Part shown: piece after piece, positions 2,936-62,296 of the stretch
Layout of the letters: each line of letters opens with the position of its first letter
How positions within the stretch are numbered: position 1 is the stretch's first letter
DNA from: Eledone cirrhosa
Lineage: Eukaryota
Assembly (NCBI GenBank): GCA_964016885.1
Contig: OZ024743.1
Coordinates: forward strand, 326,492,001-326,556,000
Direction: 5' to 3'
Length of the DNA: 64,000 nucleotides
The notes under the pieces: model-generated
Told to the model about the DNA's origin: nothing
The model's input: the letters and a program-made list of their open reading frames with translations, nothing else
Databases searched by the model: none
Position numbers and translations under genes: made by a program

Positions 2936-4926
2936 ATGGAAATGTTCGACCTTGAAACGGTAAACAACGTTCAGGTCAAAAGTTTAAAAGCAGCCACTGT
3001 AGATTTCACCACGAATACGACGACTACAGTCATGCCTGTCATCCACTCTACTGAATGTGAAGGCAAAACTCAAAAGCTACCATCACAACCTTCTGTGATA
3101 GCAGCAGTATCATCTGAAAACGACATCACCACCACCACCACCGCCACCACCACCACCACAACAACAACAACTCAGAGCAATAATGACAATAACACCGACA
3201 GCTTCAATGTAAACACGGATGGCGGTGGCAACAGCATCAACAAACAAAACAACAACAACAACAACACCAATAACAACAGCAAGAATGACAACATCAACAA
3301 CAAGAGCATCAGAAGCACCACATTTGCTGCAGCAGCAGCAAAAACAAAGCGCTTATTGGATATTGATATTGATATTAGCGATAAAGACGAACAGTTGGCC
3401 CAGGCGTGGAGGCTAATTAAACGGGAGAAGTCCTGGGCAAACCTGACCATCCCGGACGGGGCAATAGCGGCCATGCAAAGGAGGACGGTGTACTTTCGAT
3501 GCATTTCGGTGCAGACACGAAAAGTGGAACTTGCCAGCCAAGCAGAGGTCGAGGCTGCTTTGGAGTACATCGGAAGTAACATAGAGTATAAAGCAAGACA
3601 CAAACAGTTCGGTAGCTACTCTTCAAAACCGAGGCCCTCGCTATTAAGCACTCGGTGACCCCCTGCAGAATGGAACGCATTATCATGCATCCGTCCTACA
3701 AGGGTAAAAGGACAGTAAAGGTGCGCATTCCCAGCATCCCACCAGGAATGAACATATGGTGGCTGCTGGGATGCGTAATCGAGGAGGGGACAGACACTAC
3801 CCTCCTGGATATCAAAAGGACAGAGAGAGAGGACTGGTCCGGAATGGATTTGGAGATTCTTCTCCAAATGAAACCGGGGGACATGAACAACATCCCGGAT
3901 TTTGCCCGCCTGCAGGACGGGACAACAATCCAACTAATCACTGACAGAAGAAGGCCACGCTGCTTCGTCTGCGGGGAAGCAACACATCTGCAAGCCTTCT
4001 GCCCTCAGCGCAAAAATGCAGGGGGTCGCAAACCTCCTTTGTTGCCAACGCCAGTGTCAGCGCGGAAAGCTGCACCACCACCACCACCAAAAACAACACC
4101 AAGACACGGACACCAACATCAAAAACAGCCGGATCACCACCAACACCAAAACCAATCCAAGGGGAAAACGAGGAAAGCTCTCCCACTCCCCCCCCCCCCC
4201 CAATTATACACATAGACAAAACAATAAACGCACATACAGACACAGAGACACTCACAGCCACAGACCCTTTGTTTTTCCAGCAGCGAAGATGAAGGAAAAT
4301 CCAAAAGTGCAAAAAAAAAAACAGACAAAACTCACCAAAAAAAAAAGCCCCAACAAAACACAAAAACATACACAACAAAAAATACAGACACCACTAACAC
4401 AAACACTTCCCCAATAACATCACCACCAACAGCAACATCGACCCCCCCCCCCAATCCCCGAAACGCAAACAGCCTAAACAAACACAAGTACAAATAAACA
4501 TACAAATACCTGAAATTGCAGACACCACACCTACAACAAACACAGACATACCCGAAACAACACCACCAAAACCATCACCACCACAGTCACCAAAACGAAA
4601 ACAAATAAAACCACACCAACAAAATGTTAAAAACTTCGTGCTTGTCAGAAGGGCCAACGATAAACTGATGGCCCTCTTAGCACGAAGCGAGGACATTGAA
4701 ACAGAGGGGGGATTTTTGAAATGAGCACATATTGCGTGCCAGAAGATTTGCTTCTGGTCCGAATGTCACTCGTTCCTTCAAAGAAATTCGAGAGAGCTTT
4801 CCTCAAGATGTGGGAACCCCGAGTGTGAAACCCACATCGAGACTTTTAAAGGCGTTCCCAAAAGAAGCCCCACCAACCATGGAGGTCGAACCACCCGACC
4901 TTCACAAGACCCCGGGAGGTAAGTAA
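2936..4926 (+). pseudogene. LINE B ORF1, frameshifted
   Basis: ORF pieces 2936..3658, 3655..4215 (CFVCGEATHLQAFC knuckle) and 4732..4926. Confidence 0.8.
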
Positions 4927-4954
4927 ACCTTCCCTCTCTCTCTAGCTTACCAAC

Positions 4955-7900
4955 ATGGCCATATTAAGAGTAGGAAGTTTAAATGTTCGCGGCCTGGGGT
5001 CAACCTGGAAGCAGGGTTGCCTGCTCAACGACCTCAGATCGCTGGAAATGGATGTGATTGCCGTCAGCGAGACCAGAATTTCCGACACGCGCGCACTAGC
5101 CCCCATTTTCGACGACTATCAGATCTTCGCATCTGTTAGCAGGCCGGGAATGGGGGATGGGGTGACAGTGCTGTTTAGGAAAGAACTGGATCTCGATGTA
5201 AGGTCGATCTTCCGGGACCCGGACGGTAAGTTGGTGGTCTTGGATGTGAGCAATAGCGAAGGTGGTGCCTTTAGACTGCTGGCCGTCTACGCCCCTACAG
5301 GGGCCGGACAACCGGACTTCTTTAGGCGCCTGGAGACCTTTCTTGGTACGTCTCGCCCTTTACTGTTAGCGGGGGACAGGAATGGCATCTTAAACGCACG
5401 CTGGGATTGTGTGGGAGTAGCCTATAGGATCGGGGGGTGCAAAAGCCTCAAGCACCTACTCAGCCAGTTCCAACTGTCTGACAGGTATCGACTATATTTC
5501 CCCAATGTGCCAGTATGGACATGGACCAACCGAATGGGGTCATCTAGATCGTATATAGACAGGATCTTCATTAGGAAAATAGATGGAAATAGTGTAGGCT
5601 GCCCACTTTTTAAAACGGTCGCCTATTCAGATCACAAATTTGTGATCTGTACAGTTGACCTAGATAAAATGCGTAGGTTAGGACCTGGTTACTGGAAGCT
5701 GAACATGTCATTTCCGGCACGTAAGGCTTACAGGGACCGAAACAACAATTTAGTTAAGCAAAAGTTGACAGGGGGGATCATCAACAACAGATGGTGGGGA
5801 GCTCTCAAAAGAGAGATTAGAGTAACTTCGATAGAGTTCAGCAAAGAACTAGCGTTAGAGAAAAATAGAAAGGAGGGGGAGCTGGTAGATAAGTTAGACG
5901 AGGCTATTTGTAGTGGCATTGCTGCTGACGTGCTAGCGGCGAGAATGGCATTAGACCATTTCTTCAATGCGAAACACGAAAGTTGCATTGTCAGAGCTAA
6001 GGCGCGTGCGCTGAGAAACGAGGGAACCAAAGCTGTTCGATGGGCCCGCGTGGCGGAGGCACAGCGTGGTAATAAAATCACAATTCGGTCTTTTGTGAAC
6101 CGAGGCGGAAACGAGATAAGCGATTCCAAGCGGGTGTGTGAGGCCTTTCGCCAGCACTTTGCTCGGTTGTTCGGGGAAGTGGCGAGTCAGAGAGAGTAGC
6201 GGATTTCAGTCCCTACCTTGACGGCTTGCCGCGCATCTCGACGGTCGACGCTGAGCGCTGCGAAAGGCCGATTACCTCAGCCGAAATTCAGGACGCCCTT
6301 GTCGGCTACATGAGGCGCAAGTCACCCGGTTTGGATGGCCTACCCTACGAGCTTTACGTAAATATGCCAGACTTGTTCTCCGATCCCCTCGAAGCACTCT
6401 ACTGCAACTGGCAGCAGAATGGGAGTATTCCCAGTTCTGTGATAAGGAAAGACGAGAACAAGAGGGATACATTAGACAACTTCAGGCCCATAAGTCTGCT
6501 CAACACAGAGTTTAAGATTTTGGCCAAGGTGTTAGCAAAGAGATTGGCGCTTGTCGTCGAGGAATTGGTTGGAGAGGCGCAAACTTGCGCAATCCCAGCC
6601 AGGTCCATACACGACTATCTCCACCTCATGCGATACATCATAGAGAGGGTAGGATGTAAATCTGGCTTCGGTGGGGCATTCGATAGGGTCGACCATCGGT
6701 ATCTGGAGTTTGTCCTCAAGGCAGCTGGCTTCGGCCCTGTCTTCAGAAGCTGGATCGCTGCAATGCACAGCGGCACACGCTCGGTGGTCAAGGTTAATGG
6801 CCACCTCTGGGAACCATTTCGACTCTCCCGATCGGTCCGTCAAGGATGCCCTCTCTCTTCCCTTCTGTACGTATTGACTCTCGAGCCTTTACTGCGGAAG
6901 CTGGAGCTGTTGCAGGGCATCCCGCTCGAACCGTGACGTAGAAAGGCCGTGTCGGCTTATGCGGACGACATCACCGTGATGGTGTCGAACACCTCAGAAA
7001 TAGAGGTGGTCGGCACCTTATTGAAGGAATATGAAAGGTTGACAGGAGCCAAACTTAACCCGGAAAAGTCGGTGGGCTTGCAGCTCGGAACCTGGAGAGG
7101 CAAGCCCATGCCGTCCAACAGCGTTGTGGGGCGCTGGACGGACGGACTGGTAAAGTTGCTCGGGGTTTGGTTCGGACCAGACCTCCAGGTGGAAAAGAAT
7201 TAGGACGAAGTAACGAGCAGAGTAGCCAGTCTCACCCAAAAATGGGCTGGGAGGAAGCTATCACTGAAAGGTCGCGCGGATGTGGCGAATGCGTACATCG
7301 CGTCCGTCATCTACTACCACCTGACTGTCGTGCCTTGCCCCCGTCCGCGCCTCGTCAAGTTGGAACGGCTCCTCTTCAAATTCTTGTGGAGGGACAAGTT
7401 CCGTTGGTGAGGCGGTCCATCTGCTGCCAGCACCCGCTACGCGGAGGGCTGGGCATGCCGTGGCTAATGATGCGCAGACATGCGTTGAGGCTGCGACATC
7501 TCCAGATATTCTGCCTCAACGGTGAACAGGTGTGGTCGCCGTTTATCAGACGGGTCTTTCCGCAGCTCATTTCTTTGACTGAGCTGCAGTCCTGGGTCAA
7601 GAAGAGACTGAGACTGGGTGACTGGCACCTGGAATGTTGCCAGGCACTCACTGCCCTCTACCAAGCGGGCAATGCGATCAGTGGAACTTCCACTCTCGAG
7701 TTCTATAGAGGATTAGTGGTGGGCAAGTGTGATGACGCACTCGGAGAAGCTTTGGGCCTCGACGAAGTCGAACTGACCAGTCTGTACCGGAGGAGTTTTG
7801 AGCCGGGGACGATGGACAATTTCCAGAAATCCCTCGCTTGGCCGTGCTACCGGGGGGCACTGCCGGTTCGGGATAAACTCTACAGGCGCGGAAGTGCTGT

Positions 7901-22102: not shown

Positions 22103-22458
22103 TCAACTTTCCCAGTCCGTCGTGTAGATCTCCCATTCAGTTTGGGGTGGGTGAGACATGTCTTCTCTAGCGAAAATGGGTTTAGCTTTCATTATGTAAA
22201 ATCTCCCGGTGGATTGGCAGTATCAGTAGAGGGTCGGACGCCATGCTTTCCAGCATAGTTACGTCCCTTTACGATCTGAGTTCAAATCCCGCCGAGGTTG
22301 ACTTTGCCTTTCATCCTTACGGGGTCGATAAAATAAAGTACCAGTAATACACTGGGTAATTGCTGGCCTTGTGCCTAAAGTAGAAACAATTATGTAAAAT
22401 CTCCCCATTTTGCATCATTTCTCCCCGTTTTGGGGCACTTTTTTTCATGGCAAGTCTG
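22103..22458. mobile_element. Putative hAT-type MITE relic hosting a SINE
   Basis: Imperfect TIRs caggcttgtca / tggcaagtctg. Confidence 0.4.
22208..22389 (+). mobile_element. SINE family 1, full length, with TSD attatgtaaaatctccc
   Basis: A box tggcagtatcagtag, B box gagttcaaatcc; direct repeat on both flanks. Confidence 0.92.
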
Positions 22459-24873: not shown

Positions 24874-24934
<61 letters not shown>

Positions 24935-24938
<4 letters not shown>

Positions 24939-25073
24939 GTCCAGAATTAGCCGTCGAAACGGCTTGAGCTCAGCTGTCGGGGTCTTACTGGTTCCTATTA
25001 CCCACTCTACTACCCTAAGTATTGAGTACTTTGGTGCGTTATGGTCCACCTGGTTCCTTACCACATTTCCTTC

Positions 25074-25078
<5 letters not shown>
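24935..25078 (+). repeat. Short repeat family carrying the 3' half of a hammerhead (also 43050-43235, 44581-44915)
   Basis: ttagccgtcGAAACGGCTtgagctcAGC(C/T)GTCggggtc ... ttccttaccacatttcct. Confidence 0.7.
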
Positions 25079-26160: not shown

Positions 26161-27073
26161 TTCCTTCCTTGCTCACATTCCAACCAGGTTTGATGGTCTT
26201 TATTCTCTCTCGTTCACAATTTCACCGAATTTTAATTCATAGAAATTTGGGACTTGACTCCTTCTTCCTCACTTTTCGTTGCTTCACCATCTTTGTTTGT
26301 TTACACTCGTGTCCCCTTTATTTACGTGTCCCAACGACTTTTTTTAGCCGTTGCTCGCACCAACCGGAGGTATATGGTCTTTAAAGCGATGAAATACCAA
26401 TGATGGTTGGAAGATCACTGATGAAGGACTAACTTTATTCATATGTAACCCATTAGCAACCCCGCAGCACGTTTATTCTCATATTTACACATATTTTTTT
26501 CCCCGCTGTTACCCGTCTATTTCGTTCTTACTGCTTCCTCTTTCTCTGTATCTTTACCCTCTCTAGCAGTCACTTTCTCTGTTAGCCTCTTCCTCACCCT
26601 TCACTCACTCATTCTCTGTTACTACCTCTCCTCCTCCTCCTTCTTCTTCCCGTTTGACCTGTGCGTAATTATTTTCTTTCGCACCCTCGGTCTGGCAGGT
26701 CGCTTTTTTTCTCTCTTTCGTCTACGATTTCACAGAACTTACGTTCACCGAATTCACAGACTAGATCCCTTCTTCCTCCCGTTAGACCTGTACGGAATTC
26801 CTTCCTTGCTCACATTCCAACCAGGTTTGATGGTCTTTATTCTCTCTCGTTCACGATTTCACCGAATTTAAATTCATAGAAATTTGGGACTTGACTCCTT
26901 CTTCCTCACTTTTCGTTGCTTCACCATCTTTGTTTGTTTACACTCGTGTCCCCTTTATTTACGTGTCCCAACGACTTTTTTAGCCGTTGTTCACACCAAC
27001 CGGAGGTATATGGTCTTTAAAGCGATGAAATACCAATGATGGTTGGAAGATCACTGATGAAGGACTAACTTTA

Positions 27074-27080
<7 letters not shown>
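26161..27080 (+). repeat. Interspersed repeat family with an internal ~280 bp direct duplication (26161-26445 vs 26798-27080)
   Basis: Reverse copy at 42543-43040; diverged reverse relatives at 27115-27620, 53150-53610 and 53670-54060; bordered by (TA)n. Confidence 0.8.
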
Positions 27081-27116
<36 letters not shown>

Positions 27117-27624
27117 AACAAGGTTAGAGGAATACTGTGTGGTTGCACATGGGTCACATATTATAAAATTAGTCCCTCATCAGTGATTTGCCAACCATCA
27201 TTGGTATTTCATCGCATTAAAAATCAGATTCCTCAGGTTGGTGCGAGCAATAACTAAAATAAGCTATTGGGACAAGCGAGTCGCGTAAAGCGAGTGAGAC
27301 AAGTAAACAACATAGAAGGATAAAAGCAAACCGAAGATAGGAAAAAAACAAGCAACATGGTTATCCGTTCAGTATAAGCTGGGTGAATTTCATGAGCGGT
27401 CAGAAAAACAGACCGTACGCCGTGAATGAGGTGTGAGAAAGAAGGAACCCCACTACTAACGAACGGGAGGAAGTGAGAAGGGGAGAAACAGAGAGTGAGT
27501 GGAATTGCGAGGAAGAGGTCAGTCGAGAGAAAGTGTAACTGACAGAGGGGGCGAGAGAAGGTAAGAGAAACAGAGAGAACGGGGGAGCAGTAAGAGAGAA
27601 AGAGAGAAACAGATAATCGCAGTC

Positions 27625-38471: not shown

Positions 38472-39386
38472 ATATGTACACGTACATACATATATGTATA
38501 CAGACGTACAGTAGTATGTATATATATATACATAGATGCACACATATATATATGTACGTATGGATTCACCGAACATTTATTATAATGCTCGGTGTGTTTG
38601 TAAACAAACATCCCGTATTAAGCCGTAGTGTCCAGCAACCATCGCTGCTCGTTTGTTCAACACTGACAAAGGAACGCTGTACTAGTTTCAAGCTTATTAG
38701 CTATCGTCAGCAACGTATACCTTCCTGCCAGATTGTTGAACGTATATACTTACCTTATGCATATTAACGGCTGAGTAACCCAATTTGCATATCGAGTGGG
38801 TTAATCGGCCGGGTGCACCGAAAACGATAAACGGAAAAAATGAAACGAAATTTCATTTCCCACTCTTAGTACGGCTGTTACTTAAATATAAGTATGTACA
38901 CGTACATACATATATGTATACAGACGTACAGTAGTATGTATATATATATACATACATGCACACATATATATATGTACGTATGGATTCACCGAACATTTAT
39001 TATAATGCTCGGTGTGTTTGTAAACAAACATCCCGTATTAAGCCGTAGTGTCCAGCAACCATCGTTGCTCGTTTGTTCAACACTGACAAAGGAACGCTGT
39101 AGTAGTTTCAAGCTTATTAGCTATCGTCAGTGTTGAACAAACGAGCAACGATGGTTGCTGGACACTACGGCTTAATACGGGATGTTTGTTTACAAACACA
39201 CCGAGCATTATAATAAATGTTCGCTGAATCCATACGTACATATATATATGTGTGCATGTATATATATATATATATACATACTACTGTACATCTGTATACA
39301 TATATGTATGTACGTGTACATACTTATATTTAAGTAACAGCCGTACTAAGAGTGGGAAATGAAATTTCGTTTCATTTTTTTCCGTT
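38472..39386. repeat. Direct duplication plus long fold-back inversion
   Basis: 38472-38710 is repeated at 38892-39130; about 38830-39087 is inverted at about 39126-39386. Confidence 0.9.
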
Positions 39387-41970: not shown

Positions 41971-42248
41971 CTCTCACTATAGATATATATACACACACAC
42001 ACAACCTCGGTTACTCAACATTTTATTATATATATATATATTTTTTTTAAGGTCGATCGACTTTCGTCAAATCGGACCGAGGAAACAATGTTTCCTTCCA
42101 TTGGTCTTTCCAGTTGCTAATACTATCTATCGGTCGCAACTCCAGGTAGAAGGAGCAACGTGAAATAAAGTGTCTTGCTCAAGGACATAACGCCACGAAA
42201 TTTAGTAGATAAATTATATAATATTCATTCATTATTTATTCAAAGTAA

Positions 42249-42430
42249 GTGGATTGGCAGTATCGGTAGAGAGTCGGACTCCATGCTTTGAAGCATAGAG
42301 TTATGTCCCTTTATGATCTGAGTTCAAATCCCGCCGAGGTTAACTTTGCCTTTCATCCTTACAGGGTCGATAAAATAAAGTACCAGTAATGTACTGGCTA
42401 ATTGCTGGCCTTGTGCCTAAAATAGAAACA
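42249..42430 (+). mobile_element. SINE family 1 with TSD attatttattcaaagtaa
   Basis: Full head, core and tail; 18-bp direct repeat on the flanks. Confidence 0.92.
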
Positions 42431-42512
42431 ATTATTTATTCAAAGTAATCCAACTTATTTTACTAATGGGATAAAAAATTATAAACCGTACGCAGTCCCG
42501 CGCTCCTCCCTT

Positions 42513-42542
<30 letters not shown>

Positions 42543-42547
<5 letters not shown>

Positions 42548-43040
42548 TAAAGTTAGTCCTTCATCAGTGATCTTCCAACCATCATTGGTATTTCATCGCT
42601 TTAAAGACCATATACCTCCGGTTGGTGCGAGCAACGGCTAAAAAAAGTCGTTGGGACACGTAAATAAAGGGGACACGAGAGTGTAAACAAAGATGGTGAA
42701 GTAACGAAAAGTGAGGAAGAAAGAGTCAAATCCCAAATTTCCATGAATATAACTTCGGTGAAATCGTGAACGAGAGAGAATAAAGACCATCAAACCTGGT
42801 TGGAATGTGAGCAAGGAAGGAATTCCGTACAGGTCTAACGGGAGGAAGAAGGGATCTAGTCTGTGAATTCGGTGAACATAAGTTCTGTGAAATCGTAGAC
42901 GAGAGAGAGAAAAAAAGCGAACCTGCCTGACCAAGGGTGCGAAAGAAAAGAATTACGCACAGGTCAAACGGGAAGAAGGAGGAGGAGGAGGAGAGGTAGT
43001 AACAGAGAGTGAGTGAAGGGTGAGGAAGAGGCTAACAGAG
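42543..43040 (-). repeat. Copy of the 26161-27080 repeat family
   Basis: Reverse complement of about 26575-27080. Confidence 0.85.
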
Positions 43041-43246
43041 AGAATATTTATATAACGAAGGAGGTGTGGTAAGGAACCAGATGGACCATAACGCACCAGA
43101 GTACTCAATACTTAGGGTAGTAGAGTGGGTAATAGGAAAATGTTTAACCCCGACGGCAGAGCTCGACCCGTTTCGACGGCTATTTCTGTCCAGAAATAGC
43201 CGTCGAAATGGCTTGAGCTCTGCTGTCGGGATTAAACATTTTCATA

Positions 43247-44413: not shown

Positions 44414-44910
44414 AATAAACGAAGCTAAATTTTAAACATTTGACTTATTTATTTTATTTTATTTTACATTACTCCGGAGTAACCAAACCAACCTGCGCAC
44501 TTCGTCGAGTGTTCCAATCTGCATACTGAGGTGTTGGTATACAACCAACATATACTCAAAAAAAAAATATATATATATATAGGAACGAGTAGGACCCCGA
44601 CGGCTGAGCTCAAGCCGTTTCGACGGCTAATTCTGGACTAAATGAAAATTTTTCATTTAGTCCAGAACTTTACCTTCCAGTGTTCCACCACCATATATAT
44701 ATATATATAGGAACGAGTAGAACCCCGACGGCTGAGCTCAAGCCGTTTCGATGGCTAATTCTGGATTAAATTTAGTCCAGAATTAGCCGTCGAAACGGCT
44801 TGAGCTCAGCCGTCGGGGTCCTACTCGTTCCTATTACCCACTCTACTACCCTAAGTATTGAGTACTTTGGTGCGTTATGGTCCACCTGGTTCCTTACCAC
44901 ATTTCCTCCG

Positions 44911-44946
<36 letters not shown>

Positions 44947-44949
<3 letters not shown>

Positions 44950-45657
44950 GTGTCCTTTTACATCATGGATCACAGGCCTCGCGCACCAGGACAAAGTCTG
45001 ATTCACAGCCTTGGGTCCTATTCCCCTCTTGGACTCAACTCACCTCCCCAATTTCTCTAATACCCCGTCCATTATCACACCCCTAGATTACTATCCCTTT
45101 CTCTTGATCATTAACATCTCTTACAACTAATACATGCCGACTATATATGCTCACTCCACTTTTCCCTTCACTGCTCTATATACACACATACACACCCTTA
45201 TATTAACTTACTTTTGCTCATAGCTTCGTACTTACATGCACACACACTCTTTTACTCACATATACACATACATTTCTTCTTAGCTTCGTACGGACGTATA
45301 ATAACAGACACACACATGCTTACGCACGTGCACAAGAATAGCTCTTTTTACAAAACGTTTTTTTTTTTTGCATTTCAGGTAGACGCGCTCCATCATCCAC
45401 TTTTCTAAAAAATAATCATACACAAAACGCCAGCACCAACAGTTTCGCAAGAGATGTCAACATGAATGGACCTGTTATTTTTATCTAAAGACATTTTTTC
45501 CTATTCCAACCCACCCGTCCCCTTAATCTATTTTATTTCTCATTCTTTCTTCTGATGAAGGACTAGCGTCCGAAACGCTAAGACCCTCTTCCTGATATAT
45601 CAAGCGTTAACCTAATATATCCCTTCCATTGTGTTGTTATTTCTGTTTACCTTTTAC
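44947..45657 (+). mobile_element. Non-coding PLE-type 3' fragment with minimal hammerhead motif
   Basis: CTGATGA-a-GGAC-tagc-GTCC-GAAA at about 45552; shared downstream aagcgttaacctaata; (TA)n on both sides. Confidence 0.6.
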
Positions 45658-46388: not shown

Positions 46389-47142
46389 ATCGGTGGAGGG
46401 TTGGACATGCTTTCCAGCTAATTATGTAACTTTGCCTTTCATCCTTACGGGGTCGATAAAATAAAGTACCAGTAATGTACTGGGTAATTGCTGGCCTTGT
46501 GCCAAAAGTAGAAACAATTATTTATGGTGGATTGGCAGTATCGGTAGAGGGTCTGACACCATGCTTTGACGCATAGAGTTACGGCCCTTGTCATTCTGAG
46601 TTCAAATCTCGCGGAGGTTAACTTTGCTTTTCATCCTTACGGGGTCGATAAAATAAAGTACCAGTAATACACTGGGATAATTACTGGCCTTGTGCCAAAA
46701 GTAGAAACAATTATTTATGGATTGACATAAGGACAGTGGATTGGCAGTATTGGTAGAGGGTTGGACGCCATGCTTTGCAGCATAGAGTTACAGCCCTTTA
46801 TGATCTGAGTTCAAATCCCGCCGAGATTAAGTTTGCCTTTCATTCTTACAGGGTCGGTAAAATAAAGTACCAGTAACGCACTGGGGTCGATTTAATCGAC
46901 TTTCCCATCCTCCCAAATTGCTGGCCTTGTGCCTATATAAGAAACCATTATTTATGGATGGTCAGTATCGGTCGAGACTTGGACGTTATGCTTTGCAGCA
47001 AAAAGTTTCGCCCCTTTACGGTCTGAGTTCAAATCCCGCCGAGGTTAACTTTGCCTTTCATCCTTACGGGGTCGATAAAATTAAGCACCAGTAATGTACT
47101 GGGGAAATTGTTGGCCTTGTAGCAAAAGTTGAAACAATTATT
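46389..47142 (+). mobile_element. Head-to-tail cluster of four SINE family 1 copies
   Basis: Copies at about 46389, 46526, 46736 and 46956, each ending gaaac(a/c)attatt. Confidence 0.9.
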
Positions 47143-47267
47143 TGTTAGTCTTGTGGACGCAATCAGAAATGTTTTTTACTTTTCTATACAAGCTATTCAA
47201 TACTAAATAAATACTTCATAATTACTACATTCTTTCTATTACTACACTAGCTTTTCTCATTGGAATG

Positions 47268-52035: not shown

Positions 52036-52588
52036 TCTTAGACATGAGCCCAGTACAGCGTCAATTACGATTAATGGAGAATCAACTATTTGGTTCCGGA
52101 CTTCATATTGAGTGGAATAGAATAGACCTCCATCGGTTTCGACGATGAGTGTTCCATCCTACTCACGAAATTAATGTGTAAGTGGCTGGGCATTCCACAG
52201 ACACGTGCAGCTTTAACGTAATTCTCGGGTAGATTCAACATGACTGAATGTGTGACAAAGTAAACCCTTTGAATTACATGTACAGTCCATTCCACAGACT
52301 TCCAAACAGTTTTATTTAAATAAATAAATAAAATAAAAATGGTGTAGATATTACAATACAATGGGAGGAAACATAATAATAGCACTGATAATGTCACAGG
52401 TGATGACGAAAGAACTTTGATAGACTATATATATATATATATTTATATCAATATTTTTAACCGTTGGTCAAACAATGAGAAACATTGATTGCCAGACAAA
52501 TTAACTATGGAGATATAAAAGATAGAGAAGTGAAAACCAATCCAAATCAAACAGTGAATGTGTTTTATTATTATTTCTGGGAATAGAG

Positions 52589-52797
52589 CGGTGGATTGGC
52601 AGTATCGGTAGAGTCGGACACCATGCTTTACAGCATAGAGTTACGGTCCTTTACGGTCTGAGTTCAAATCCCGCCGAGGTTAACTTTGCCTTTCATCCTT
52701 ACGGGGTCGATAAAATAAAGCACCAGTAACGTACTGGGTCGATTTAATCGACTTTCCCCAAATTACTGGCCTTGTGCCTATACTTGAAATCATTATT
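52589..52797 (+). mobile_element. SINE family 1 (long variant with gtcgatttaatcgac hairpin)
   Basis: Head, core and 3' end ggccttgtgcctatacttgaaatcattatt. Confidence 0.9.
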
Positions 52798-52816: not shown

Positions 52817-52861
<45 letters not shown>

Positions 52862-52868
<7 letters not shown>

Positions 52869-53074
52869 ATACTTTGGGAGGGTCATGTTGCCAATAAGAA
52901 ACACACGCACCAGTTGCTTTCACTCCAATTTATTATAAATTAAGAAATCTTTAAAAAAAATAAAAATAAATTTTTTTTTTATTTTTATTTCTTAATTTAT
53001 AATAAATTGGAGTGAAAGCAACTGGTGCGTGTGTTTCTTATTGGCAACATGACCCTCCCAAAGTATAACAATAT
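52862..53074. repeat. Fold-back inverted repeat, arms about 85 bp
   Basis: tattgttatactttgggagggtcatg... / ...catgaccctcccaaagtataacaata. Confidence 0.92.
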
Positions 53075-55743: not shown

Positions 55744-55806
<63 letters not shown>

Positions 55807-55812
55807 AACGAG

Positions 55813-56880
55813 TAGGTTGTGTTCACGGAGTTGCCAGTTCTTGTTGGCGAGCGTGGTCACAAAACGGTGATCAGGATGTTTAATTGAGAATCGATGACGG
55901 TACCAGCGGCACATCCTTTAAATCTCGCTGGTACCGTCATCGATTCTCAATTAAACATCCTGATCACCGTTTTGTGACCACGCTCGCCAACAAGACCTGG
56001 CAACTCCGTGAACGCAACCAACAGTTCACCTTGAAATGGGATATACTTTCCAGCGCAAGTGCATATCGGAGTGGATTGAAGTACTGCAGGTTATGTAACC
56101 TTGAACTCTTTTACATCTTAAAATCCAAAAATAAATTACTAAATGATAGAATCGAACGATCATTATAGTGCAACAACAAACTGAAGGCTAAATTCTCTCA
56201 CTATAAAATAACTTAACATTCGAACCCGTAACTATAACATTGCTTTCTAGCTAACCACTTTCTCTTCCCCCACACTACAAGACAATACCCTGCTTATCAC
56301 TATAAATGGGAACTTAGTGCAATTCGTAGATTACTACTATGAACCCAATGTTCACCCACCCCATAGCTTTCGTCTGTCCCCTCTCTATCTCTCCCTCTCT
56401 ATCCATTCCACTCTCTCCCTCTCGCCCTAGGTCTACCTCCCTCCCTCTCCACATCTATGAACCTGCCCTCTGGGGCAATAAATAATTCCAACCTTGACTA
56501 TCAACGCATCGCTTAAGGTGGTCGCTTTAAGAGTAACCAGTATAATAAAACCCCTACCACAACATTTTGATTAAGATATCTACAAACCACTCTCTCCCAT
56601 TTCTCCAACCCCTGCATATCTCTCTCTCTCTCTCTTCCTCTCCCCTTCTTTTCTCTCTTCCTTTCTACTCTATCTTCCCCAATAACCTCCCTTAAGGGTA
56701 TTTACATTGTACATTTTAACCATTCTGCTCTGACGATACAGTGGTCACAGCATTTGATAATTGCAAATAGTTATAAATTTGCACATAGCATAACTAGGCT
56801 GTATAACCACCGTGGAAACATTTGTAAGCACAGAATAAATTATCTTTTTATGATGTCTACCTGTTATTATTCATTCTTTA
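55813..56880 (+). mobile_element. Third Penelope-like family: GIY-YIG C-terminal fragment with 5' fold-back and 3' hammerhead
   Basis: [13 protein letters not shown]...TTLANKTWQL...LKWDIL...CRLCNLELFYIL...LLNDR; about 95-bp inverted copy at the 5' end. Confidence 0.75.
56723..56835 (+). ncRNA. Type I hammerhead ribozyme with greatly extended stem II
   Basis: tgct-CTGACGA-tacagtggtcacagc...gctgtataaccaccgtg-GAAA-cattt-GTA-agca. Confidence 0.7.
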
Positions 56881-61171: not shown

Positions 61172-61447
61172 GCGGTGGATTGGCAGTATCGGTAGAGGGT
61201 CGGACGCCATGCTTTCCAGCATAGTTACGTCCCTTTACGATCTGAGTTCAAATCCCGCCGAGGTTGACTTTGCCTTTCATCCTTATGGGGTCGATAAAAT
61301 AAAGTACCAGTAATGCACTGGGTAATTGCTGGCCTTGTGCCTAAAGTAGAAACAATTATTTCATAACTCTTACGGGGTCGATAAAATAAAGTACCAGTAA
61401 TGCACTGGGTAATTGCTGGCCTTGTGTCTAACGTAGAAACAATTATT
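61172..61447 (+). mobile_element. SINE family 1 plus a duplicated 3' half
   Basis: Full copy 61172-61360 and a repeat of its 3' part at 61369-61447; attatttcataa on both flanks. Confidence 0.9.
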
Positions 61448-62079
61448 TCGTAACTCTATAGAACTATTAGAATGTTTGTGCAGTGTTCTGTGTCCAGCCA
61501 GGTTTGTATAACAGGTAAGAAAAATGATGATTCGGTGACGGTTTCTTCTGATAGGAGCCTCTTCCACGTCGGAAGATCGAAGTGTGTTTTCTTGTCTTCT
61601 TCAATACTTTCATAAACGGCTGTTTTAGTTAAGGGTGAAAGCAGCGATTCTTTGCTTAAACTTTAATCTGTTCTTATAATATATTTCCCGCTTCGTCCTC
61701 GAGGATGGACCCTAATTTTGATAATCAAAAATTTGAAAAAAAATAATAATCAACCTTCGACCTCCAGGACGCATGGTATAAAAGAAGTTGTAGACTAATA
61801 TTCTATTAGGTGGTTCATAGAGACGCTCTCTGGCAATGAACGGAAAAAAACGAAGATAATACGTCATATGTGTAGCGGGGAGAACAATTACACGCAAAGA
61901 CAAAACCACGTAAATGGTATAACTGAAGTCGTAGACTAAAATTCTAACTAGGAAACCGAATGATTCTTGGCTTTAATAAATATTTGCTCTACGGTTCTTA
62001 TATATTTGATATATATTTATCCTTATCGAGCCCTCTTTGGATTTTAGTCTTCAAATTTATTATTATTACTATATATATT

Positions 62080-62166
<87 letters not shown>

Positions 62167-62170
<4 letters not shown>

Positions 62171-62296
62171 GTAAAATTCCGTTATAATTCCATTATAAAG
62201 AATTTTTCGTTACAACGATTTTCGTTTTACCGTTATAACGAAAATCGTTGTAACGAAAAATTCTTTATAATGGTATTATAACGGAATTTTACCTCT
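62167..62296. repeat. Near-perfect palindrome, arms about 60 bp
   Basis: agaggtaaaattccgttata...cgattttcgtt / aacgaaaatcg...tataacggaattttacctct. Confidence 0.9.

Follow-up and report, generated by a model that had tools for sequence, protein, structure and literature searches.

Half-hammerhead palindromes of a Hydra-clade Penelope-like element in Eledone cirrhosa and their probable origin from run-off cDNAs

Repeat copies in the window and their parent element

The window is a 64,000-nt stretch of the Eledone cirrhosa genome (assembly GCA_964016885.1, contig OZ024743.1, positions 326,492,001 to 326,556,000), and all positions refer to it. As a first-pass annotation of the sequence had reported, four repeat copies in the window (24934-25075, 43055-43243, 44582-44667 and 44710-44911) carry the GAAA, stem III, GUC and stem I 3' strand of a hammerhead ribozyme, and inspection of the sequence confirmed that CUGANGA is absent from all four. 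The copies are 87-99% identical to the pseudo-LTR (pLTR) of the parent element L061 described below, and each is surrounded by (TA)n. Positions within the repeat take as +1 the A of TTAGTC/TCAGTC that lies 18 nt before GAAA (the preceding base is 0 in our script). Every arm of the repeat begins at X (+58) or at the tail end (+138), 80 nt apart; at both points TAT comes next in the element and (TA)n forms the host join.

At 44710-44911 a nearly perfect palindrome of about 60 bp carries an unpaired 80-nt extension. Its inverted X arm (44710-44771, minus strand) directly follows (TA)n and runs from +58 to about -4. The tail arm (44770-44911, plus strand), 95% identical to the pLTR of L061, extends from about -4 to +138 and ends in (TA)n. 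It contains the +1 A at 44774, the stem II 3' strand, GAAA at 44792-44795, stem III, a predicted cleavage site after C 44814, the stem I 3' strand, X at 44831 and the 80-nt tail at 44832-44911. The layout at 43055-43243 is the same on the opposite strand: a tail arm of a second subfamily ending at +5 (43055-43188, minus) and an X arm of the same insertion beginning at +2 (43188-43243, plus) overlap by 1 nt. In both copies the upstream part is the reverse complement of the downstream arm, as had been noticed.

For the copy at 44582-44667 the earlier description was confirmed in part. Compared with the native upstream sequence of long copies, 44582-44653 (minus) is indeed an inverted half-hammerhead arm, begun at X (+58) and running past +1 (44639) to about -14. 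The forward part, which had been described as a long hairpin, consists only of a 14-nt fold-back of the arm's own end (44654-44667, plus), followed by 25 nt from the 3' end of an unrelated (TA)n-ending repeat (44668-44692, plus). The fold-back would fit a filler made by local snap-back on 3 bp with a loop of 3 nt. A solo tail arm, about -4 to +138, lies between two (TA)n runs at 24934-25075 (plus), without an inverted arm. Furthermore, a 12-nt X-arm stub after (TA)n (55805-55816, minus) is joined to the fold-back of another Hydra-type element.

Two composite arrangements were observed in addition. The series at 44582-44911 (X arm, short fold-back, 25 nt, TA, palindrome) recurs in inverted orientation 129 kb away (L002, G000:C4). 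The two composites have substitutions in common, their flanks and centre differ, and the 25 nt at L002 are a duplicate of the flank beside them; one composite probably served as the source of the other. The stretch 55805-56830 is a two-family chimera that contains the 12-nt stub, the GIY-YIG end of the other Hydra-type element (34% amino acid identity to L061) and its 3' UTR, with a CTGACGA hammerhead-like motif at 56730-56819.

To judge by exact matches in the 3.0 Gb genome, whose other repeats look octopus-like, the hairpins are short insertions of a Penelope-type element present in tens of thousands of copies: a 35-mer over GAAA gave 10,076 matches and a tail 32-mer 33,439, with 0 for the reversed control of each. 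Long copies led to the parent L061, in which (TA)n, an inverted truncated copy, a partial tandem copy, the ORF, the 3' UTR, the last pLTR and (TA)n follow one another. The intact ORF of 719 amino acids encodes a reverse transcriptase (RT) with a C-terminal GIY-YIG endonuclease and contains RWR at 37, DKT at 117, YRDD at 348, CNCPDRSIC (CxCx5C) at 572, YIG at 606, CNLC (CxxC) at 670 and CKH (CxH) at 698. A Pfam scan of this ORF returned 0 families and a PDB sequence search no match. Look-alikes of the protein in the Atlas scored 0.97-0.99, with HTH_animal, GIY-YIG and RVT_1 shares. At L061:2936-4477 and 4879-7239 the element is apparently intact and young, with partial copies that are 97-99% identical, and it offers material for biochemistry; compared with the tandem copy, its 3' UTR carries a deletion.

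These features agree with the Hydra clade of Penelope-like elements (PLEs) as described by Craig et al. 2021 (PMC8557442), who also list an octopus representative, Hydra-1_Obim. Shared are the single short ORF in an element below about 3-4 kb, the C-terminal GIY-YIG, and the RWK-type, DKT and CxCx5C linker motifs with endonuclease CxxC and CxH (section 11 of that paper). Likewise shared are the (TA)n targets, the pLTRs with a partial tandem and an inverted 5'-truncated copy, and the one-ended tail. In our sample 98 of 100 tail ends reach TATA 9-15 nt from the anchor, 85 at the same base. The L061 protein tracks the published Hydra alignment motif by motif, as far as motifs and comparison by eye can tell, and by eye it belongs to a different family from Hydra-1_Obim. 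The tail is 80 nt here and 30-40 nt in the Hydra elements of PMC8557442. We therefore assign the repeats, from sequence, to the 3' pLTR of a Hydra-clade PLE that appears to be a new family within a known clade; the element type is already known and the ribozyme is a variant. Their reading as truncated retro-insertions carrying half a hammerhead was thus borne out.

Two other element types were considered. A Naiad PLE, our initial guess, requires an N-terminal GIY-YIG and was ruled out by domain order, the endonuclease of L061 being C-terminal. A non-LTR retrozyme requires head-to-tail units with whole hammerheads; the short copies are scattered, either solo or head-to-head, and have no 5' half.

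A variant hammerhead motif

In native long copies the motif reads ACCCC-TTGANAA-GNT-CGGCTA, a loop of about 38 nt, TAGCCG-TC-GAAA, stem III, GTC and GGGGT. Intact copies had been expected to read cccc-CTGANGA-gacggcta; what was found is cccc-TTGANAA-GNT-cggcta, with 4,133 matches against 8 for CTGANGA. The long hairpin ttctggactaaatgaaa..tttcatttagtccagaa, which had been taken for the stem II of the family, is not that stem: long copies show CGGCTA/TAGCCG around the loop of about 38 nt. From this comparison the long stem II is an inversion junction and not native to the family.

When positions 3, 7 and 8 were left free, 5,497 matches were obtained. A hand tally of the first 100 gave 80 U3-A8 pairs, 18 C3.A8, 2 U3.G8 and 0 C3-G8, and N7 was occupied by all four bases. 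Thus U3-A8 pairing prevails, yet a subfamily with the C3.A8 mismatch has been successful. Three helices surround (C/U)UGAN(G/A)A, GAAA and UH as in a type I hammerhead, and 93% of cells are paired in 11 copies. The minimum-energy fold of the L061 copy is a hammerhead (z 0.31), and copies of other subfamilies (L196 and L083) fold otherwise. Covariation was not significant: 3 pairs had double changes, a number that 79 of 500 shuffles also reached. An Rfam scan of the native motif gave no match at E 10, and an Rfam scan of the window found no hammerhead. In place of the canonical hammerhead reported for Hydra elements the core here is a variant; the canonical form is a reported feature and not diagnostic of the clade. 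The motif is hammerhead-shaped, then, with self-cleavage predicted, and its mismatch subfamily has spread anyway.

Hydra elements have canonical hammerheads (PMC8557442), that of Hydra-1_Obim with a ctgaaga core and an 8-nt loop II, in contrast to the U3-A8 core and the large loop II of this family, which includes a predicted start site. Closer in core are the minimal hammerheads of the Schistosoma Cercyon PLEs (Cervera and De la Pena 2014, PMC4209133), with U3-A8 for C3-G8 and a long helix II. Those lack a stable helix III, whereas the family described here has a helix III of 5-6 bp and a large loop II. The same paper describes motif pairs 100-700 bp apart on opposite strands. Older subfamilies in the Eledone genome (L196, L197, L114) have U3.G8 or other cores and a longer stem II (CAGCTAGAT/ATCTAGCTG), and lack the TATTTA box discussed below. 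This suggests that the core may have evolved in the order C3-G8, U3.G8, U3-A8, C3.A8.

Arm ends, junctions and the base before +1

Breakpoints were mapped at the first 100 occurrences of the tail pattern along contig C1, where 77 inverted arms could be scored. The usual insertion consists of one X arm and one tail arm, both of which stop at or just inside +1. The breakpoints are non-uniform, in line with the first-pass annotation: a single 13-nt window (-5 to +7) holds the ends of 58 of 100 tail arms. Another 32 end downstream, a class inflated by wrong automatic calls for the divergent L071, L080, L123 and L154. Two end in the next 13 nt upstream and one further up, so that together with 7 long arms only 10 pass the window. 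Inverted arms behave similarly, with 58 of 77 ending at -5 to +12, 3 upstream and 16 downstream. Run-off from an RNA end gives such a pattern, in which the upstream edge is hard and the downstream side trimmed.

The annotation had placed the cDNA stop in stem II, followed by snap-back and self-primed second-strand synthesis. In this account the cDNA stalls in or near stem II, or is made on an antisense template, folds back and copies itself into the second arm; the antisense version is the proposal of PMC3846280. The breakpoints do fall within the span of stem II and its loop, and both arms carry the same subfamily haplotype in 40 of 55 pairs (18% by chance), with a mixed look only in two or three (L112, L135, L136). 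The mostly shared haplotype leaves one RNA read twice as possible as two RNAs. Short fold-back fillers at 44654-44667, L002, L005 and L156 also look like snap-back products, and they are probably the only case that snap-back fits.

For whole arms, however, the geometry mostly does not fit. A self-primed product needs a tail arm longer than the X arm by a loop of at least 3 nt, which is true of only 18 of 77 junctions; in 31 it is the X arm that exceeds the other, and in 28 the lengths differ by no more than 2 nt. Where the difference is 10 nt or more, the X arm is the longer in 20 and the tail arm in 6. Post-insertion deletion could make lopsided arms in some cases. The account is also opposed by arms that do not overlap (L096, L113, L131, L160, L267) and by loci at which neither arm contains the other (L038, L054). 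Moreover, an RNA begun at +1 cannot form stem II.

The sequence upstream of the edge has promoter-like spacing. In long-copy rows TATT(T/C)A occurs at -29 to -31 in 42 of 46 and CCAAT at -87 to -92 in 25 of 46; the motifs were chosen after viewing the sequence and the rows are related and non-independent. TATTTA is a TATA variant. An internal promoter is known within the pLTR of the D. virilis element. A sister family (L166-L195, L214-L253) with a canonical CTGATGA core, a weak helix III and 15,048 tail matches served as a natural control. Its rows have TATAAATA at -30 in 7 of 8 and CCAA(T/C) at -84 in 6 of 8. At 70 loci of this family, inverted arms that keep the core end at +1 to +6, 5' of CUGAUGA, in 22 of 22. 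Its forward arms scored 0 to +6 in 27 of 31, though one of these 27 and three of the remaining 4 look by eye like long copies of other subfamilies. By these comparisons the sister family has the same promoter spacing at the stop, yet its edge lies 5' of the hammerhead core and outside stem II, which further opposes a self-priming stop in stem II.

Among contigs from four coded runs, summed depth in X1 rose about 18-fold across +1 and fell about 380-fold past the tail end, in agreement with the genome sample; contigs do not reveal RNA starts, such depth is not a copy number, X1 may be the window's own sample, and the run was excluded from independent support. A splice acceptor at TTTAG was considered for the edge and rejected, as the extra G described below precedes AG and there is no fixed upstream exon.

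A further mark of the edge is a non-native G. With native bases excluded, the base preceding +1 was G in 84 and A in 16 of the first 100 of 5,007 matches. For the sister family the first 100 of 1,906 matches had G in 75, A in 12 and T in 13. One base downstream, as a control, G was found in 13 of the first 100 of 6,294 matches. These are hand tallies (Fisher against the control, p 2e-25 for the family and 2e-19 for the sister family) in which about 30 of the 84 Gs possibly come from the partner arm and some loci are counted on both strands. In long copies G at -1 was seen in 0 of 46 rows. Both arms carry the G at 289 loci. Among the 50 of these listed, the spacer between the Gs is 0 nt in 2, 1 nt in 30, 2 nt in 14 and 5-6 nt in 4, and 6 of 6 fetched loci pair an X arm with a tail arm. 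The sister family has the same double-G junctions. When 20 loci were picked for non-palindromic context, their 22 G junctions comprised 14 X arms and 8 tail arms, 4 of them directly on host (TA)n.

An untemplated 5' G in L1 and SVA insertions has been ascribed to copying of the cap (PMC3287187), where it marks complete copying of the RNA. By analogy, the promoter spacing and the extra G would be marks of a capped RNA 5' end at the stop site, with +1 as the putative start and the cap as the putative source of the G. A C added by the RT at any run-off end would give the same G. Arms ending at -3 or -4 or further up (44710, about -4; 44582, -14) would need a second start or read-through, and a native T confounds the count at -4.

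The G bears directly on self-priming. Spacers of 0-2 nt between two Gs leave too little room for a hairpin primer, and post-insertion deletion could not make such joints. Solo arms with G against (TA)n likewise speak against self-priming, and an antisense template leaves a G at the sense promoter spacing unexplained. Taken with the arm lengths and the sister family, these junctions largely refute self-priming for whole arms, which we regard as very improbable; the stop that had been attributed to stem II would mark an RNA 5' end instead.

If the fixed RNA 5' end at which the arms ran off were no transcription start but a nuclease cut, a ribozyme product or a recapped end, the extra G could stem from a terminal-transferase C. 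About 11 of the 32 downstream tail ends do fall at +34 to +46, near the predicted hammerhead cut (+41/+42), although deletion between two AGCCGTC direct repeats could also yield ends near +41. The main edge is 41 nt from this cut, and TATA and CCAAT each keep their distance to the edge in two families whose ribozymes are placed differently relative to it. This origin is thus improbable. Trans-splicing fits poorly too, since no fixed leader precedes the AG at +1/+2.

The palindromes could also descend from a few master elements, MITE- or SINE-like, that copy themselves as a unit. A recurrent junction, ATTCTG|TCC, was found in 4 sample copies and at 43188, and the 44582-44911 composite recurs at L002 with other flanks. 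Against this, 70 distinct junctions were counted among the 77, and at least six subfamily haplotypes have palindromes of their own. The same two ends are furthermore found in solo arms and in head-to-head pairs of kilobase length: 13 of 15 long pairs have one X and one tail end, one has two X ends and one is unscored. We give hardly any credence to self-copying masters. A MITE or foldback DNA transposon was rejected as well: the ends are unequal (X versus tail), the centre differs in 70 of 77, and the parent encodes an RT.

One forward jump at +1 was seen among 149 junction queries. In the region L075:1320-1410 a tail arm from +1 is joined, in direct orientation, to 3' UTR about 680 nt upstream, and a template jump after run-off is possible there.

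A proposed head-to-head joining of two run-off cDNAs, and related systems

The origin of the inverted pLTRs of PLEs, and whether a sense or an antisense template is used, is left open in the relevant parts of PMC3846280, PMC8557442 and PMC11167929. The printed account of PLE junction palindromes, antisense-template self-priming, is flagged in PMC3846280 as needing experiments. For the family studied here we consider it likely that two separately primed cDNAs were each copied to the capped 5' end of the element's sense RNA by run-off, and that their ends were afterwards fused head to head. That both arms carry a cap-like G at the predicted start favours two such cDNAs over self-priming.

An internal Pol II promoter, composed of CCAAT at about -90, the TATA-like box at about -30 and the initiator-like TTAGTC/TCAGTC, would start the RNA at +1, inside hammerhead loop II. 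The element protein would nick both (TA)n strands and prime one cDNA each at X and at the tail end, close to the RNA 5' end. The cDNAs would run off after 58 and 138 nt, the cap sometimes being copied as an extra base, and their 3' ends would be fused by host end-joining, accompanied by small trims, microhomology or fillers. The 7 long arms among 100 may arise from priming in the 3' pLTR or on read-through RNA, or by a jump of a short cDNA. The position of +1 inside loop II would also account for the missing 5' half of the ribozyme, which lies upstream of +1: a transcript from the 5' pLTR would carry only the hammerhead 3' half, hence the half-hammerhead. The motif copy at the RNA 5' end would not cleave alone; the complete copy in the 3' pLTR could.

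A wider and rather doubtful extension is that PLE replication passes through a strong-stop step like that of retroviruses, with capped sense RNA as the template. A dimer might prime two opposite-strand cDNAs near the 5' end. Fused, these might give the mini-palindromes that form the bulk here; after a jump to the repeated +1 to +41 at the ribozyme-cut 3' end they might regenerate the pLTR and yield long and tandem copies. The promoter in loop II would split the hammerhead so that only the 3' copy cuts. Retroviral minus-strand strong-stop DNA is likewise a short run-off cDNA, primed close to the 5' end of a capped RNA with terminal repeats. Its primer is a tRNA, whereas here nicked target DNA would take that role and the product would mostly be integrated as is.

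In L1 twin priming two primers on opposite strands likewise lead to an inversion. There the inner primer site is variable and the two parts are free of overlap, whereas in this family both start sites are fixed and +1 to +58 is copied twice.

The protein of the Poseidon element PAc of Anolis nicks and extends both strands and was modelled as a dimer (Frangieh et al. 2024, PMC11167929), and its insertion in vitro did not need ribozyme activity. Like the family described here, PAc has two internal RT start sites bounding the tail, uses both strands and targets AT-rich DNA. Its start sites are non-homologous to the cut DNA, whereas both sites here precede TAT and are attached to (TA)n. Neither head-to-head joining nor run-off from the 5' end of the RNA is described for PAc in the relevant part of that paper. 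Earlier papers already describe inverted pLTRs, tails, (TA)n targets, Hydra elements in octopus and U3-A8 cores. Run-off at a start site and a cap-derived G in PLEs were unreported in the titles and abstract openings searched, mostly from outside subscription journals.

Scoring of the extra G is cheap in any PLE-rich genome and would map start sites without RNA data. The proposed joining could also explain where many thousands of perfect hairpins of 50-60 bp come from; if transcribed, these would be putative ADAR or small-RNA substrates.

Other repeats in the window were recorded alongside. At 45552-45576 lies a canonical minimal hammerhead (CTGATGA, stem II of 4-5 bp, GAAAC) followed by a (TA)n-ending tail, likely from another PLE family. 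Another (TA)n-ending family occurs at 27021-27217, with two copies face-to-face, and at 42520-42800; its arm stops just past CTGATGAAGGAC, and the RT start site seems to lie inside the hammerhead. Long perfect palindromes of other families lie beside simple repeats at 38960-39260, 52820-53070 and 62170-62290 and possibly represent the same kind of junction. A SINE-like repeat of 100-200 nt is dispersed over 22207-22403, 42231-42445, 46427-47144 (in tandem), 52571-52785 and 61173-61450.
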